This document shows positions 2,711 to 5,985 of a DNA stretch of 6,055 nt, in pieces (within the stretch, counting starts at the first letter, position 1; each line of letters starts with the position of its first letter). Both the position numbers and the translations under genes were made by a program. The notes beneath the pieces were generated by a model. The model did not search any database, was not told the origin of the DNA, and worked only from the letters and a program-made list of their open reading frames with translations. Origin of the DNA: a virus (lineage: Duplodnaviria > Heunggongvirae > Uroviricota > Caudoviricetes); the IMG/VR virus record IMGVR_UViG_2660238408_000005; one strand, 5' to 3'.

Positions 2711-2911
2711 ATGAGCGTCAAAATTCAAACGATACCGGAACTGCTTATCCAGACACGAGGTAATATGACCGAAGTTTCACGAATGCTGAACTGTAATCGC
2801 GCCACGGTAAGAAAATATGCTGAAGATAAAGAGGGCAAAGGGCACGCCATTGTTGATGGTGTTCTGATTGTTCATCGTGGATGGGACAGGGGTAAAGACA
2901 GTGATGCGTGA
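2711..2911 (+). CDS. ninH: NinH-like small DNA-binding protein
   Basis: 66 aa starting at ATG 2711, SD GGAGAG at 2699-2704. Shares the pattern IP.LL...GN.TEV.R.L.C.R.TVRKY..DK.GK.HAIV..VL.VHRGW with lambda NinH as recalled from memory. Sits immediately upstream of Q, as in lambda. The ORF track start at 2708 is TTG. Confidence 0.7.
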
Positions 2912-3284
2912 TATTCAGCAGGTTCTTGAGCGCTGGGGCGCGTGGGTGGCTAATAATCATGAGGATGTGACCTGGTCGTCCATTGCTGCCGGTTTTAAGG
3001 GATTAATCCCTTCAAAAGTAAAATCCCGCCCGCAATGCTGTGACGATGACGCGATGGTTATATGTGGGTGTATGGCCCGCCTTAACCGGAACAACAACGA
3101 TCTACATGACTTGCTGGTTGACTACTACGTGTTTGGGATGACATTCATGACGCTGGCGCGGAAGCATGGATGCTCAGATGGTTATATAGGAAAGAAGCTA
3201 CAAAAAGCCGAGGGGGTGGTGGAAGGAATGTTGATGATGTTGGGTGTCCGGTTAGAAATGGACAAATATATTGAACATCCCTGA
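2904..3284 (+). CDS. Q: Late-gene antitermination protein Q, phage 21 / QuuD type
   Basis: 126 aa from ATG 2904: [34 protein letters not shown]...[16 protein letters not shown]...[15 protein letters not shown]. This is near-collinear with E. coli DLP12 QuuD / Q21-family antiterminators as recalled. The ORF track start at 2868 adds 12 residues and would overlap ninH more deeply; ATG 2904 overlaps the ninH stop by 8 nt. Confidence 0.8.
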
Positions 3285-3311
3285 TGGTAAGGGGCGACTT
3301 TCTAGAAAATA

Positions 3312-3327
3312 TTTTACGTACGTAAAA
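3312..3327. promoter_or_regulatory. Perfect 16-bp palindrome TTTTACGTACGTAAAA in the Q-terminator intergenic region; candidate operator or Q-binding / late-promoter element
   Basis: The sequence is its own reverse complement. An overlapping AAAATATTTT palindrome lies at 3306-3315. It sits where lambdoid phages carry the late promoter PR' and qut. Function is inferred, not demonstrated. Confidence 0.3.
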
Positions 3328-3340
3328 AACGGGATATTCT
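3313..3340 (+). promoter_or_regulatory. Candidate late promoter (PR'-like): -35 TTTACG (3313-3318), 16-nt spacer, -10 TATTCT (3335-3340)
   Basis: Hexamer matches to sigma70 consensus are weak to moderate. Position is right for PR' (downstream of Q, upstream of terminator). Alternative hexamer choices exist. Confidence 0.2.
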
Positions 3341-3370
3341 GTTAAGAGTGGTTGCTTCGCCACACAGCTT

Positions 3371-3397
3371 AAACCCGCCTCCGGGCGGGTTTTTTAT
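3371..3397 (+). terminator. Rho-independent terminator, candidate tR'
   Basis: Stem CCCGCC (3374-3379), loop TCCG, stem GGCGGG (3384-3389), followed by TTTTTT (3390-3395). The 5' AAA could extend the stem by pairing with the T tract. Confidence 0.7.
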
Positions 3398-3445
3398 GCC
3401 TGAAAAACGGTACAGGACGTTAAACACGCTGGTGGTCAGATGAGT

Positions 3446-3474
3446 TTGCAGATGTGATGACATATGGTTATTAT
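3446..3474 (+). promoter_or_regulatory. Candidate sigma70 promoter for the downstream tRNA: -35 TTGCAG (3446-3451), 17-nt spacer, -10 TATTAT (3469-3474)
   Basis: The predicted transcription start is about 3481-3482, a few nt upstream of the tRNA 5' end at 3484. Hexamers read directly from the sequence. Confidence 0.35.
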
Positions 3475-3483
3475 TCTGCCTCC

Positions 3484-3559
3484 GGCCCTTTAGCTCAGTT
3501 GGNNNNNNNNNNNNNNNNNNNNNNNNNNNNNNNNNNNNNNNNNNNNNNNNNNNNNNNNN
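3484..3559 (+). tRNA. tRNA gene, 5' end only visible (3484-3502); remainder is masked, so isotype is undetermined and the 3' coordinate is an estimate
   Basis: GGCCCTT-T-A-GCTC-AGTTGG gives a 7-nt acceptor arm, U8, A9, D-stem GCTC and the canonical D-loop AGTTGG. This resembles the 5' end of enterobacterial tRNAs such as Ile/Thr/Lys (from memory). tRNA genes between Q and the lysis genes are typical of lambdoid and Stx-type prophages. Confidence 0.5.
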
Positions 3560-3917
3560 NNNNNNNNNNNNNNNNNNNNNNNNNNNNNNNNNNNNNNNNN
3601 NNNNNNNNNNNNNNNNNNNNNNNNNNNNNNNNNNNNNNNNNNNNNNNNNNNNNNNNNNNNNNNNNNNNNNNNNNNNNNNNNNNNNNNNNNNNNNNNNNNN
3701 NNNNNNNNNNNNNNNNNNNNNNNNNNNNNNNNNNNNNNNNNNNNNNNNNNNNNNNNNNNNNNNNNNNNNNNNNNNNNNNNNNNNNNNNNNNNNNNNNNNN
3801 NNNNNNNNNNNNNNNNNNNNNNNNNNNNNNNNNNNNNNNNNNNNNNNNNNNNNNNNNNNNNNNNNNNNNNNNNNNNNNNNNNNNNNNNNNNNNNNNNNNN
3901 NNNNNNNNNNNNNNNNN
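3503..3917. other. Masked / undetermined sequence (415 N)
   Basis: A run of N directly visible in the sequence. Nothing inside can be annotated. It is flanked 5' by the tRNA start and 3' by a T7 tract. Confidence 1.
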
Positions 3918-4136: not shown

Positions 4137-4352
4137 ATGAAATCCATGGACAAAATTTCAACGGGCATTGCCTACGGCACCTCCGCCGGCAGTGCCGGCT
4201 ACTGGTTTTTGCAGTGGTTGGATCAGGTCAGGCCATCACAGTGGGCTGCGATTGGTGTGCTGGGAAGTCTGCTTCTGGGGCTTCTGACTTATCTGACGAA
4301 TCTGTATTTCAAAATAAGAGAAGACAAGCGTAAGGCTGCACGGGGAGAGTAA
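4137..4352 (+). CDS. S: Class II holin (pinholin), phage 21 S21 type, with dual-start motif
   Basis: 71 aa beginning [31 protein letters not shown]...[36 protein letters not shown], essentially collinear with phage 21 S21 as recalled. Two TMDs (a Gly/Ala-rich SAR-like TMD1, then TMD2) and a charged C-tail. Met1-Lys2-Ser3-Met4 gives the antiholin/holin dual start (ATG 4137 and 4146). Strong SD GGAGGT at 4125-4130. Confidence 0.9.
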
Positions 4353-4355
4353 ATA

Positions 4356-4985
4356 ATGAAGCATGAAGAAATGAATCAGCGATTCAATCACCTGGAAAAT
4401 GAAATCACTGAGCTTAATAAAAAATTGTCGGCGTTGGTGAGTTCTGAAGATGAAAACAAACGCCGCGATGAGCATTATGCGGCGATTTACGATTACTGCC
4501 ACAAAGTCGCTCACGAGACTTTTATGAAGTTTTTGCAGGAAAAGTTTTTACCGGCCGCATTGTCAGAAAAAGAGGCGGCTTACCTGCGGCCTGAGTACGT
4601 CATTACGGTTAACAGTGCCGGAGAGGAAGAGCATAAAAGTGATTTTATTGCGTCTGCACCGGATAAAGACCAGGAACCCCATCGGCCTTTCAGGGTTTCC
4701 TGTGAAGAGGGTGAGTTCGTCGTTTATGAGAACGGAAAACCTGTCCGGGCATCGCATCATCACTGCCTGAAAATTATTAATCTCGCTATCAGATGCCTGA
4801 AAGACGAAAACACCAGAGTTATGAAACGCATTGGCCGTTGCATGGGGTATTTGCAGGTGGCGGCAGAGATTGAAGCACTTGCCAGTGGTGCAGACATGGA
4901 TGCTGCGGTGCGGGAGGCTCTTCTTCGTGATTTCAATACTCCCCCTTTAAGAAAGAGCCTGATGACTGGATCCAGCCGGGGCTGA
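4356..4985 (+). CDS. Hypothetical 209-aa soluble protein of unknown function inserted inside the lysis cassette (moron candidate)
   Basis: ATG 4356 lies 3 nt after the holin stop, with GGAG at 4344-4347 (8-nt spacer). Long open frame with no TM segment or signal peptide evident. Acidic, coiled-coil-like N-terminus (NQRFNHLENEITELNKKLSALVSSEDENKRRDEH), several Cys/His (HHHC, CxxxxxxxxC). First half is visibly AT-rich relative to its neighbours. No family recognised by eye. Confidence 0.6.
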   Translation: MKHEEMNQRFNHLENEITELNKKLSALVSSEDENKRRDEHYAAIYDYCHKVAHETFMKFLQEKFLPAALSEKEAAYLRPEYVITVNSAGEEEHKSDFIASAPDKDQEPHRPFRVSCEEGEFVVYENGKPVRASHHHCLKIINLAIRCLKDENTRVMKRIGRCMGYLQVAAEIEALASGADMDAAVREALLRDFNTPPLRKSLMTGSSRG

Positions 4986-5050
4986 CTTATCTTAAAAGGC
5001 GTATATAAGTTGGCTCGTTATTTGTTGCCGATAAATCCTGATAAATATCC

Positions 5051-5584
5051 ATGAGCGCAAAAATCAAATACGGCCTGTCGGCTGCTGTTCTGGCGCTGAT
5101 TGCCGCAGGCGCGTCTGCTCCCCAGATACTTGACCAGTTTCTGAACGAAAAAGAGGGTAATCACACAACGGCATACCGTGATGGTTCTGGCATATGGACC
5201 ATCTGTCGTGGTGCCACAATGGTGGATGGTAAGCCTGTCATACCGGGAATGAAGCTGTCGAAGGAAAAATGTGACCAGGTTAACGCTATTGAACGTGATA
5301 AGGCGCTGGCATGGGTGGAGCGCAATATTAAAGTACCTCTGACCGAACCCCAGAAAGCGGGTATAGCGTCATTTTGCCCCTATAACATTGGCCCCGGTAA
5401 GTGTTTCCCGTCGACGTTTTATAAGCGGCTGAATGCCGGTGATCGTAAGGGCGCATGCGAGGCGATTCGCTGGTGGATAAAAGATGTTGGGCGCGATTGC
5501 CGCATACGTTCAAATAACTGCTATGGACAGGTTATTCGTCGTGACCAGGAAAGCGCATTAGCCTGTTGGGGGATAGATCAATGA
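5051..5584 (+). CDS. R: SAR endolysin (T4-lysozyme-like / GH24 muramidase, R21 type)
   Basis: 177 aa. N-terminal weakly hydrophobic Gly/Ala-rich signal-anchor-release segment [21 protein letters not shown]. Catalytic triad at E35, D44, T50 in [24 protein letters not shown], the same spacing as the E-8-D-5-T triad of phage lysozymes, with numbering identical to R21 as recalled. No clear SD upstream. Confidence 0.9.
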
Positions 5585-5985
5585 GCAGAGTCACCGCGAT
5601 TATCTCCGCTCTGGTTATCTGCATCATCGTCTGCCTGTCATGGGCTGTTAATCATTACCGTGATAACGCCATTACCTACAAAGAGCAGCGCGACAAAAAC
5701 GCCGGAGAACTGAAGCTGGCGAACGCAACCATTACTGACATGCAGCAGCGCCAGCGTGATGCTGATGCACTCGATGCTAAATACACGAAGGAGTTAGCTG
5801 ATGCGAAAGCTGAAAATGATGCTCTTCGGCGCAAGCTTGATAATGGTGGTCGGGTGCTCGTCAAAGGAAAATGCCCTGTGCCATCCTCAGCCGAAACCTC
5901 CAGCGCCTCCGGCATGGGCAATGATGCCACCGTCGAACTCTCTCCAGTTGCTGGACGAAACGTTCTCGGTATCCGGGACGGGTGA
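5581..5985 (+). CDS. Rz: Rz-like i-spanin (inner-membrane spanin subunit)
   Basis: ATG 5581 overlaps the endolysin stop (ATGA). N-terminal [21 protein letters not shown] plus a coiled-coil region. The first ~85 aa are near-identical to lambda Rz as recalled ([34 protein letters not shown]...[19 protein letters not shown]); the C-terminal portion diverges and is shorter. The ORF track start at 5566 is an upstream extension. Confidence 0.85.

Follow-up and report, generated by a model that had tools for sequence, protein, structure and literature searches.

What is the role of a perfect 16-bp palindrome between the stop codon of a phage antiterminator gene, Q, and a strong intrinsic terminator? 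The question is raised by a 6,055-nt stretch of Caudoviricetes DNA (IMG/VR record IMGVR_UViG_2660238408_000005), referred to below as the window. For positions 3285-3397 of this window, an initial annotation had proposed the architecture of a late promoter pR', a Q-binding element and the terminator tR', with an operator for another dimeric regulator as the alternative. The proposed architecture was borne out by a Q protein of family PF06530, by homology of the promoter to pR' of phages H-19B, 933W and Sp5, by conservation of the dyad and by the terminator. By homology, the 3285-3397 interval is the late-gene control cassette (pR'/qut/tR') of a lambdoid Escherichia coli prophage, of the Q21-family type represented by QuuD, H-19B and 933W. 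Within this cassette, the palindrome is probably the Q-binding element, read by two inverted Q protomers.

Our analysis also leans, with less assurance, towards a broader interpretation for the whole QuuD/H-19B/933W branch. Here the Q-binding element would be a perfect inverted repeat bound by two protomers with two-fold symmetry, the loading geometry would be unlike that of phage 21, and a one-residue code would pair Gly93 with TTTACGT, Thr93 with TTTACGA and an Arg-containing helix with TGCG.

Two palindromes in one window

The palindrome scan found TTTTACGTACGTAAAA at 3312-3327 to be identical to its own reverse complement, as had been claimed, with no further symmetry outside it (A at both 3311 and 3328). 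It lies where it had been placed, between the Q stop codon (3282-3284) and the terminator (3371-3395). The statement that such a palindrome is expected well under once in 6 kb was also correct, as first-order Markov simulations of the unmasked window gave on average 0.087 perfect palindromes of this length. Inside the Q coding sequence, at 2997-3012 (codons K-G-L-I-P), lies another palindrome of 16 bp, AAGGGATTAATCCCTT, likewise perfect, and two in one window are far above the expected 0.087. This second palindrome was rejected as a regulatory site, because synonymous changes break its symmetry in most homologues; it looks like a by-product of coding. Because an unconserved palindrome is present in the same window, chance statistics alone are not decisive for 3312-3327. 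The palindrome at 2997-3012 serves instead as an internal control, from which the one at 3312-3327 is separated by conservation and not by chance.

The palindrome overlaps the predicted late promoter

The 3285-3397 interval was homologous to the regions that follow Q in numerous Shiga-toxin (Stx) phages, H-19B, 933W and Sakai Sp5 among them. In the GenBank records of 933W and Ss-VASD, TTTACGATCGTAAAAATCTGCATATCAT (28 bp, TTTACG...TATCAT) is labelled a putative late promoter, pR', and the hairpin that comes next is listed for 933W as possibly a rho-independent terminator. In the window, the -35 hexamer TTTACG (3313-3318, plus strand) is the left half of the palindrome; it is placed as in the 933W and Ss-VASD annotations and fits the Sp5 start. 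The -10 hexamer TATTCT (3335-3340, plus strand) follows after a 16-bp spacer and ends 7 nt before the start site transferred from Sp5. By homology, the two hexamers and a block around the start site align to the mapped Sp5 promoter and to the annotated pR' of 933W and Ss-VASD.

The Sp5 start was mapped by differential RNA sequencing (dRNA-seq) by Sy et al. (PMC7547250), who placed it 258 nt upstream of the 3' end of StxS and reported an RNase E cut at +173, between GU and AUU of GUAUU. In Sakai Sp5 (locus L034), this motif lies at 917-921, and the last base of the second terminator's U-run is 1003. The RNase E motif and the 258-nt length both place the Sp5 +1 at L034 position 746, the A of GATAAG-A-GTGG. 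We infer that transcription in the window starts at A3347. Relative to this position, the palindrome covers -35 to -20 of pR' and consists of two inverted 7-bp half-sites, TTTACG(T/A), with an invariant core at 3313-3326.

Positions T-12, A-11 and T-7 of the -10 were each 100% conserved, but the T-7 column and TA at -12/-11 were required in the selection of modules, so that the sole independent evidence for the -10 is its fit to the mapped start. A consensus scanner missed both pR' (8 of 12 hexamer matches, with a cut-off of 9) and tR' (three T's are absorbed into the stem, and the tail rule fails); these misses are limits of the scanner and were not used as evidence either way. A divergent minus-strand promoter sharing the -35 was also considered and rejected, as TAGAAA, which would serve as its -10, is peculiar to the window and, by eye, unconserved in homologues.

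Around +1, we identified an invariant block, TGTTAAGAGTG (3340-3350, plus strand; -7 to +4), which is a candidate, though uncertain, sigma-dependent pause element or Q-loading determinant. The block is common to three classes of promoter, A, B and C, distinguished below by their half-sites, as TG-N-TAA-N-A-N-TG; since the search was anchored on this pattern, the invariance of the block is partly by construction. Within it, TAAGAGT (-4 to +3) resembles the pause element of phage 21, TAAGCTG (+2 to +8), and lies 5-6 nt further upstream relative to +1. Further into the leader, Stx phages have TACATT at +7 to +12, where the window has TGCTTC, and these positions are unconserved among class-A leaders. 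The 1999 GenBank record of 933W (AF125520; locus L198, 1208-1215) assigns the label 'qut' to ACATTGCC, at +8 to +15 of the leader. Because this sequence is unconserved among class-A leaders, the label probably marks something other than the Q-binding element.

Upstream of the -35, an A/T-rich stretch at 3299-3311 may act as a UP-like element, a tentative assignment. The corresponding positions of homologues, -45 to -36, form an A-rich run, with A at -39 in 92% of them, and their sequence is otherwise unconserved. Two overlapping 10-bp A/T palindromes, TTTCTAGAAA and AAAATATTTT, were also observed at 3299-3315, directly 5' of the main palindrome; homologues do not share them.

Conservation of the dyad

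Loci were gathered via the Q protein and not via the palindrome, from one genome per species and from IMG/VR viral contigs. The sequence TTTACG-(TA or AT)-CGTAAA was present at most 150 nt from Q in 25 of the 31 species-level loci, and the core was found in eight genera: Escherichia, Pantoea, Trabulsiella, Citrobacter, Xenorhabdus, Proteus, Providencia and Morganella. Among 36 distinct promoters, which were collected by anchoring on the -10 and start-site block only, 35 contained the exact 14-mer core and the remaining one had a single mismatch. In the set of promoters used to measure its offset, the core always lay 27 nt upstream of the final base of the -10. Positions -34 to -29 and -26 to -22 were 100% conserved and -21 was 98% conserved, compared to 35-65% for neighbouring positions. 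Conservation in homologous Q-terminator intervals had been named beforehand as a check on the initial annotation, and no block of the interval was as conserved as the palindrome.

When IMG/VR was scanned for exact copies of TTTACGTACGTAAA, 112 of 120 occurrences lay in a pR' context, with one site per returned stretch. A single site per stretch, located at pR', implies that the palindrome is not a dispersed operator. In complete E. coli genomes, the conserved DNA module corresponded to window positions 3313-3394, beginning where the palindrome core begins and ending in the U-run of the terminator; it was present in 3955 of 5426 genomes (~73%), including the promoters of Stx1 and Stx2a phages and of DLP12.

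The distance between Q and the palindrome was variable, and the exceptions among the 31 species-level loci could be accounted for or were instructive. In DLP12-type loci, the nmpC porin gene and IS5 are inserted after Q; in phage PA-2, palindrome and promoter are located beyond the lc porin gene; and in other loci the palindrome is 0.8-2.8 kb from Q. Judged from these arrangements, the palindrome travels with the promoter and not with the Q stop codon. Among the inserts themselves are IS5 and the porin genes nmpC and lc, which lie on the opposite strand; with further genes, the inserts total 0.8-2.8 kb (locus L009, 1885-2700; PA-2, locus L036, 1-700; several IMG/VR loci), and the junction between the Q stop and pR' appears to be a preferred insertion site for accessory genes.

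The Q protein and its predicted DNA-reading helix

The Q gene (2904-3284, plus strand) encodes a protein of 126 aa and ends in a TGA stop codon. The protein matched PF06530 over its full length (E = 4e-54) and also gave a PDB sequence match to Q21; PF06530 is the family of phage 21 Q, and not that of lambda Q or phage 82 Q. RefSeq names the product of an identical gene 'antiterminator Q family protein', and the NCBI name for a protein 86% identical to it is QuuD, the DLP12 antiterminator of E. coli K-12. A protein search for homologues gave, among the matches listed, close relatives only (78-99% identical); distant Q classes were reached through tblastn on phage records and IMG/VR.

In an AlphaFold2 model of Q, the predicted local distance difference test score (pLDDT) was 83-94 across residues 50-115. 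The best fold matches in the PDB were the Q21 structures 6P1B/6P18 (template modelling scores 0.58-0.62), followed by region 4, the -35-binding domain, of extracytoplasmic function (ECF) sigma factors. The predicted helix-turn-helix, encoded by 3144-3239 on the plus strand and assigned from the AlphaFold2 secondary structure and the sigma-R4-like fold, comprises a helix at residues 81-88, a 3-residue turn and a recognition helix at 92-112. Residue 93, within C90-S91-D92-[G/T]93, is placed by the model in the first turn of the second helix; in the window it is Gly (codon GGT, 3180-3182, plus strand).

Covariation between the palindrome centre and residue 93

The centre of the palindrome was only TA or AT, and the element is consequently always a perfect palindrome. 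Its state followed residue 93 of Q. Gly93 occurred with TA in 123 loci and Thr93 with AT in 59, with no discordant case (182/182 concordant); 90 of the Gly93 cases came from loci selected solely for the TA palindrome and serve as a test of prediction. The rule held from loci in which the palindrome overlaps the Q stop to one in which it lies 2845 nt away behind inserted genes, in 47 distinct combinations of helix and flank, and across at least 12 state changes on a tree of 65 distinct Qs. Residue 94 of Q showed no correlation with the base next to the palindrome. Dam methylation of GATC was rejected as the role of the centre, because TA-centre variants, which make up ~60% of the distinct promoters, have GTAC.

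More distant Qs extended the pattern to the half-sites. Qs with an I-R recognition helix, ~40-49% identical to the window Q, were associated with TGCG..CGCA, as TGCG-NN-CGCA in class B (Moellerella-type) and TGCG-GTC-CGCA in class C (Stx2_12E129_yecE, APSE-6). The change from class A to classes B and C is symmetric, from A to G on the left and from T to C on the right. The register of the right half-site is the same in all three classes, and the 3-bp centre of class C shifts the left half-site by 1 bp.

A mosaic late promoter was observed in the Stx2a phage Stx2_12E129_yecE (locus L319, 1082-1190), in which a class-C dyad, TGCGGTCCGCA, is matched to the phage's own Q and joined to a start block, leader and terminator of class A that closely match those of the window, being nearly identical. 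This arrangement implies that the element follows the Q helix and not the downstream module. In addition, some class-B phages contain two copies of the element (TGCG-NN-CGCA, -10 and start block), 160 nt to 1 kb apart (locus L033, ~1893-1940 and 2871-2918; locus L123, ~1896-1945 and 2058-2107), which suggests two Q-responsive promoters in one late region.

Comparison with known systems

The structurally solved reference is phage 21, for which Q21, pR'21, the Q-binding element, the pause element and tR' are described (structures 6P18/6P19/6P1A and 6JNX). The window resembles it in encoding a PF06530 Q with a sigma-R4-like fold (predicted for the window Q), in the order of Q, promoter, ~50-nt leader, intrinsic terminator, tRNA genes and S21-type holin, and in having a TAAG-type motif near +1. 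The phage 21 element consists of direct repeats, TGAGCA-AA-TGAGCA (PMC6606751). Both elements contain two 6-bp subsites whose starts are 8 bp apart (6+2+6; 3313-3318 and 3321-3326 in the window), and both are just upstream of, or overlap, the core promoter. However, the subsites of the window, TTTACG-TA-CGTAAA, are inverted, as they are in classes A, B and C. The locations differ as well: the phage 21 element extends from -25 to -12, between the -35 and the -10, whereas that of the window extends from -34 to -21 and includes the -35 hexamer. The window Q is 36 aa shorter than Q21, ~33-35% identical to it over residues 8-85, and has a predicted canonical helix-turn-helix with a short turn, in contrast to the helix-turn[loop]helix of Q21.

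The pR'-tR' regions of H-19B, 933W and Sakai Sp5 and that of K-12 DLP12 (QuuD) are direct homologues of the window cassette; the window Q shares ~85% identity with the Qs of Stx phages and 86% with QuuD. Stx phages and DLP12 share with the window the palindrome core, the position of the -10, the start-site block and a homologous first hairpin. The Stx phages differ from the window in having Thr93 with a GATC centre (Gly93 with GTAC in the window) and a longer Q (144 aa) whose end is overlapped by the palindrome. In these phages, a further 200 nt and a second terminator, both absent from the window, lead to the 258-nt StxS. Q-dependent read-through was reportedly shown for H-19B by Neely and Friedman in 1998.

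Lambda pR' is similar to the window in having a constitutive late promoter, a Q site in the promoter region, a terminator and late genes, but its leader is 194 nt long, its Q belongs to an unrelated protein family and it is not known to have a dyad element of this kind. As a perfect inverted repeat that overlaps the -35, the window site also resembles the sites of Mu C/Mor and lambdoid operators, which are recognized by identical helix-turn-helix subunits. These proteins act at initiation, whereas the protein linked to the window site is an antiterminator, and its site is centred at -27.5 with half-sites 8 bp apart.

A model for Q loading and points against it

These data are consistent with a model in which sigma-70 RNA polymerase would start at pR' (-35 at 3313-3318, -10 at 3335-3340, +1 at ~3347) and, without Q, would terminate ~48 nt further on, at tR' (3371-3395). 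Two Q protomers would bind head-to-head on the palindrome (-35 to -20), in a 2:1 stoichiometry, each reading a 7-bp TTTACG(T/A) half-site with its sigma-R4-like helix-turn-helix; residue 93 would determine which base pair is innermost, T.A for Gly and A.T for Thr. Bound at the palindrome, Q would engage the polymerase soon after promoter exit, being handed over as an inverted pair, and the modified polymerase would resist tR' and allow expression of tRNA, lysis and late genes. Head-to-head binding would explain why both halves are invariant, why the centre is symmetric and why a single change in Q is accompanied by a double change in DNA.

Several points weigh against this interpretation. The whole argument for Q binding is comparative. 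Phage 21, the only structurally solved relative, uses direct repeats, and its protomers contact different parts of the polymerase; an inverted pair cannot exactly reproduce this geometry, and the loading geometry would have to differ if the model is right. Relative to +1, the palindrome is also 9 bp further upstream than the phage 21 element, although the offset is only 3-4 bp if measured from the TAAGAGT block. A convincing -10-like pause element downstream of +1 was not found in the window, and the 933W record has its 'qut' at +8 to +15 instead. Part of the conservation of the left half-site is owed to sigma, since this half-site doubles as the -35 hexamer. With regard to covariation, a change from GGN to ACN at codon 93 requires two substitutions, and the pattern probably reflects two old alleles shuffled by recombination and not repeated new co-mutation. 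Physical linkage (codon 93 and the palindrome are often ~150 bp apart) could explain part of the concordance. Loci with 0.8-2.8 kb between Q and the palindrome, together with the class B and C data, argue that selection for matched pairs of Q and site is also acting.

Alternative explanations

The alternative raised in the initial annotation was that the palindrome is an operator for another dimeric regulator, of host or phage, which would occlude the -35 and spacer of pR' while Q reads elsewhere. Perfect symmetry and a centre at -27.5 are what a repressor operator typically shows, the site of phage 21 Q consists of direct repeats and not of a dyad, and a small helix-turn-helix protein, NinH, is encoded just 5' of Q in the window. 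Such an operator is nevertheless disfavoured by the perfect covariation of the centre with one Q residue (182/182 loci); in addition, the half-sites change with the class of Q recognition helix, each returned stretch contains one copy, always at pR', and no other gene is constantly linked, so we consider this origin unlikely. NinH was specifically rejected as the binder, because class-B loci lack ninH beside Q and phage 21 has only a ninH fragment. Nor does promoter function by itself, with the left half as the -35, the right half as a conserved spacer or DNA-shape determinant and Q acting via the transcribed region, seem a probable explanation. TTTACG is correctly placed for a -35, invariance is also seen in the block around +1 and the 933W record locates qut (+8 to +15) in the initial transcribed region. 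However, conservation is 98-100% at -26 to -21, six positions that sigma-70 does not read. Promoters of classes B and C retain a dyad, TGCG..CGCA, which is poor as a -35; covariation with a Q residue would be unexpected for a pure promoter element; and +7 to +12 is unconserved among class-A leaders.

Whether the covariation reflects function at all can also be questioned, as two ancient haplotypes might be co-inherited while palindrome-templated mutation keeps the symmetry. Template switching is known to cause mutations that correct quasi-palindromes, codon 93 is ~130-150 bp from the palindrome in most loci, and the two substitutions needed between Gly and Thr favour allele shuffling over repeated new co-mutation. 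We give little credence to a pure linkage artefact, however, since concordance persists across 0.8-2.8 kb of unrelated intervening genes and across at least 12 switches on the Q tree, in highly mosaic genomes, and since linkage leaves unexplained both the invariance of the 12 outer positions in eight genera and the symmetric half-sites of classes B and C. Least credible is an RNA hairpin in the Q mRNA, acting as a terminator, stabiliser or processing site. The palindrome would indeed be in the 3' UTR or at the 3' end of Q transcripts from the early promoter, but as RNA, 3312-3327 folds with only -2.4 kcal/mol (z = -0.32), 74 of 200 shuffles fold as well, no U-tract follows, and where genes are inserted after Q the element stays with pR' and not with Q. 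We regard this role as highly improbable.

Novelty and implications

The cassette itself is, by its homology to the pR'-tR' regions of H-19B, 933W and DLP12, known biology. What appears to be newly described is that the Q-binding element proposed for this branch is a perfect dyad, overlaps the -35 and has a centre that follows a one-residue rule in Q. Full-text literature searches on the palindrome sequence, on where Q of 933W binds and on dyad symmetry returned nothing relevant; an earlier mention in Plunkett 1999 or in Neely and Friedman 1998 is possible.

The cassette is the switch for lysis and late genes of lambdoid prophages and, in Stx phages, for toxin genes. The present analysis adds a concrete, testable definition of the predicted docking site for a very common type of Q. 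If Q does bind the inverted repeat, the loading complex of phage 21 would not be the sole route by which Q21-family proteins are handed over to RNA polymerase. If the residue 93 code is correct, it would predict which co-resident prophages trans-activate each other's late operons, including stx, and would sort the late promoters of Shiga-toxin and other enterobacterial prophages into incompatibility groups.

Terminator and leader RNA

The strong intrinsic terminator proposed at the end of the interval was confirmed. On the plus strand at 3371-3395, tR' is predicted to form a 9-bp stem, a 4-nt TCCG loop and U6 (-17.0 kcal/mol, z = -5.05), and none of 200 shuffles was as stable. The stem pairs AAACCCGCC (3371-3379) with GGCGGGTTT (3384-3392), and the T-run occupies 3390-3395. 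The assignment agrees with the hairpin annotated in 933W and with the layout of phage 21. A transcript of only about 50 nt had been anticipated, and the predicted leader is 48-49 nt, as in phage 21 (tR' at +3 to +50), with the U-run at about +44 to +49.

The predicted fold of the leader consists of this terminator and a small 5' hairpin, in which +2 to +6 would pair with +13 to +17 (3348-3363, plus strand). This possible hairpin is seen in the minimum-free-energy structure, and across 36 distinct leaders 86.7% of cells were paired, with one covarying pair (GC in 16, AU in 13), a modest indication that it is formed. An Rfam scan of the whole window (E <= 1) detected no family over threshold and gave three sub-threshold matches, all to the terminator hairpin on the minus strand.

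In Stx phages, the pR' transcript StxS-L is 258 nt long and ends at a second terminator, as published (PMC7547250). Nucleotides 1-48 of StxS-L align to window 3347-3395, and the remainder does not align; the window is without the 3' Hfq-binding part of StxS (74-85 nt, with the rpoS seed and the second terminator). Since only nucleotides 1-48 align, the prophage lacks the small-RNA part of StxS, and tR' is followed directly by a tRNA promoter. In Sakai Sp5 (locus L034, 770-795), a first hairpin with U7 at +25 to +50 is homologous to window 3371-3395 and weaker than it (-12.6 vs -17.0 kcal/mol); no mention of a ~50-nt RNA was found in the passages searched in PMC7547250.

Prophage setting

The 3285-3397 region is 100% identical to the chromosome of E. 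coli strain CFSAN029787. On the plus strand, the window contains, in order, a DnaC-like loader, a DnaB-like helicase, a small open reading frame (ORF), NinH, Q, the cassette, a tRNA cluster and lysis genes. The first genes 3' of tR' are those of the tRNA cluster (start at 3445-3502 including its promoter, tRNA from ~3484, plus strand), as annotated in an identical E. coli prophage. Their promoter, TTTGCA-18-TATTAT (3445-3474, plus strand), was predicted by the promoter scan, and a homologous promoter is annotated as 'pT' in 933W. The cluster itself is masked by 415 N at 3503-3917, where an otherwise identical E. coli prophage (locus L002) has tRNA-Ile, Arg, Thr and Gly. Over the masked stretch, the matching L002 sequence is 50 nt shorter, implying that the source of the window is slightly different there.

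Late (lysis) genes follow the cassette on the same strand at 4137-5985, as identified by Pfam matches and by RefSeq annotation of the identical prophage. A 209-aa ORF (4356-4985, plus strand; RefSeq hypothetical protein), between the holin and lysozyme genes, gave zero matches in a Pfam search and is an unexplained passenger within the lysis cassette. The other members are an S21-type holin (4137-4352, PF04971), a lysozyme (5051-5584, PF00959) and an Rz-like protein (5566-5985, from the RefSeq annotation), all on the plus strand.

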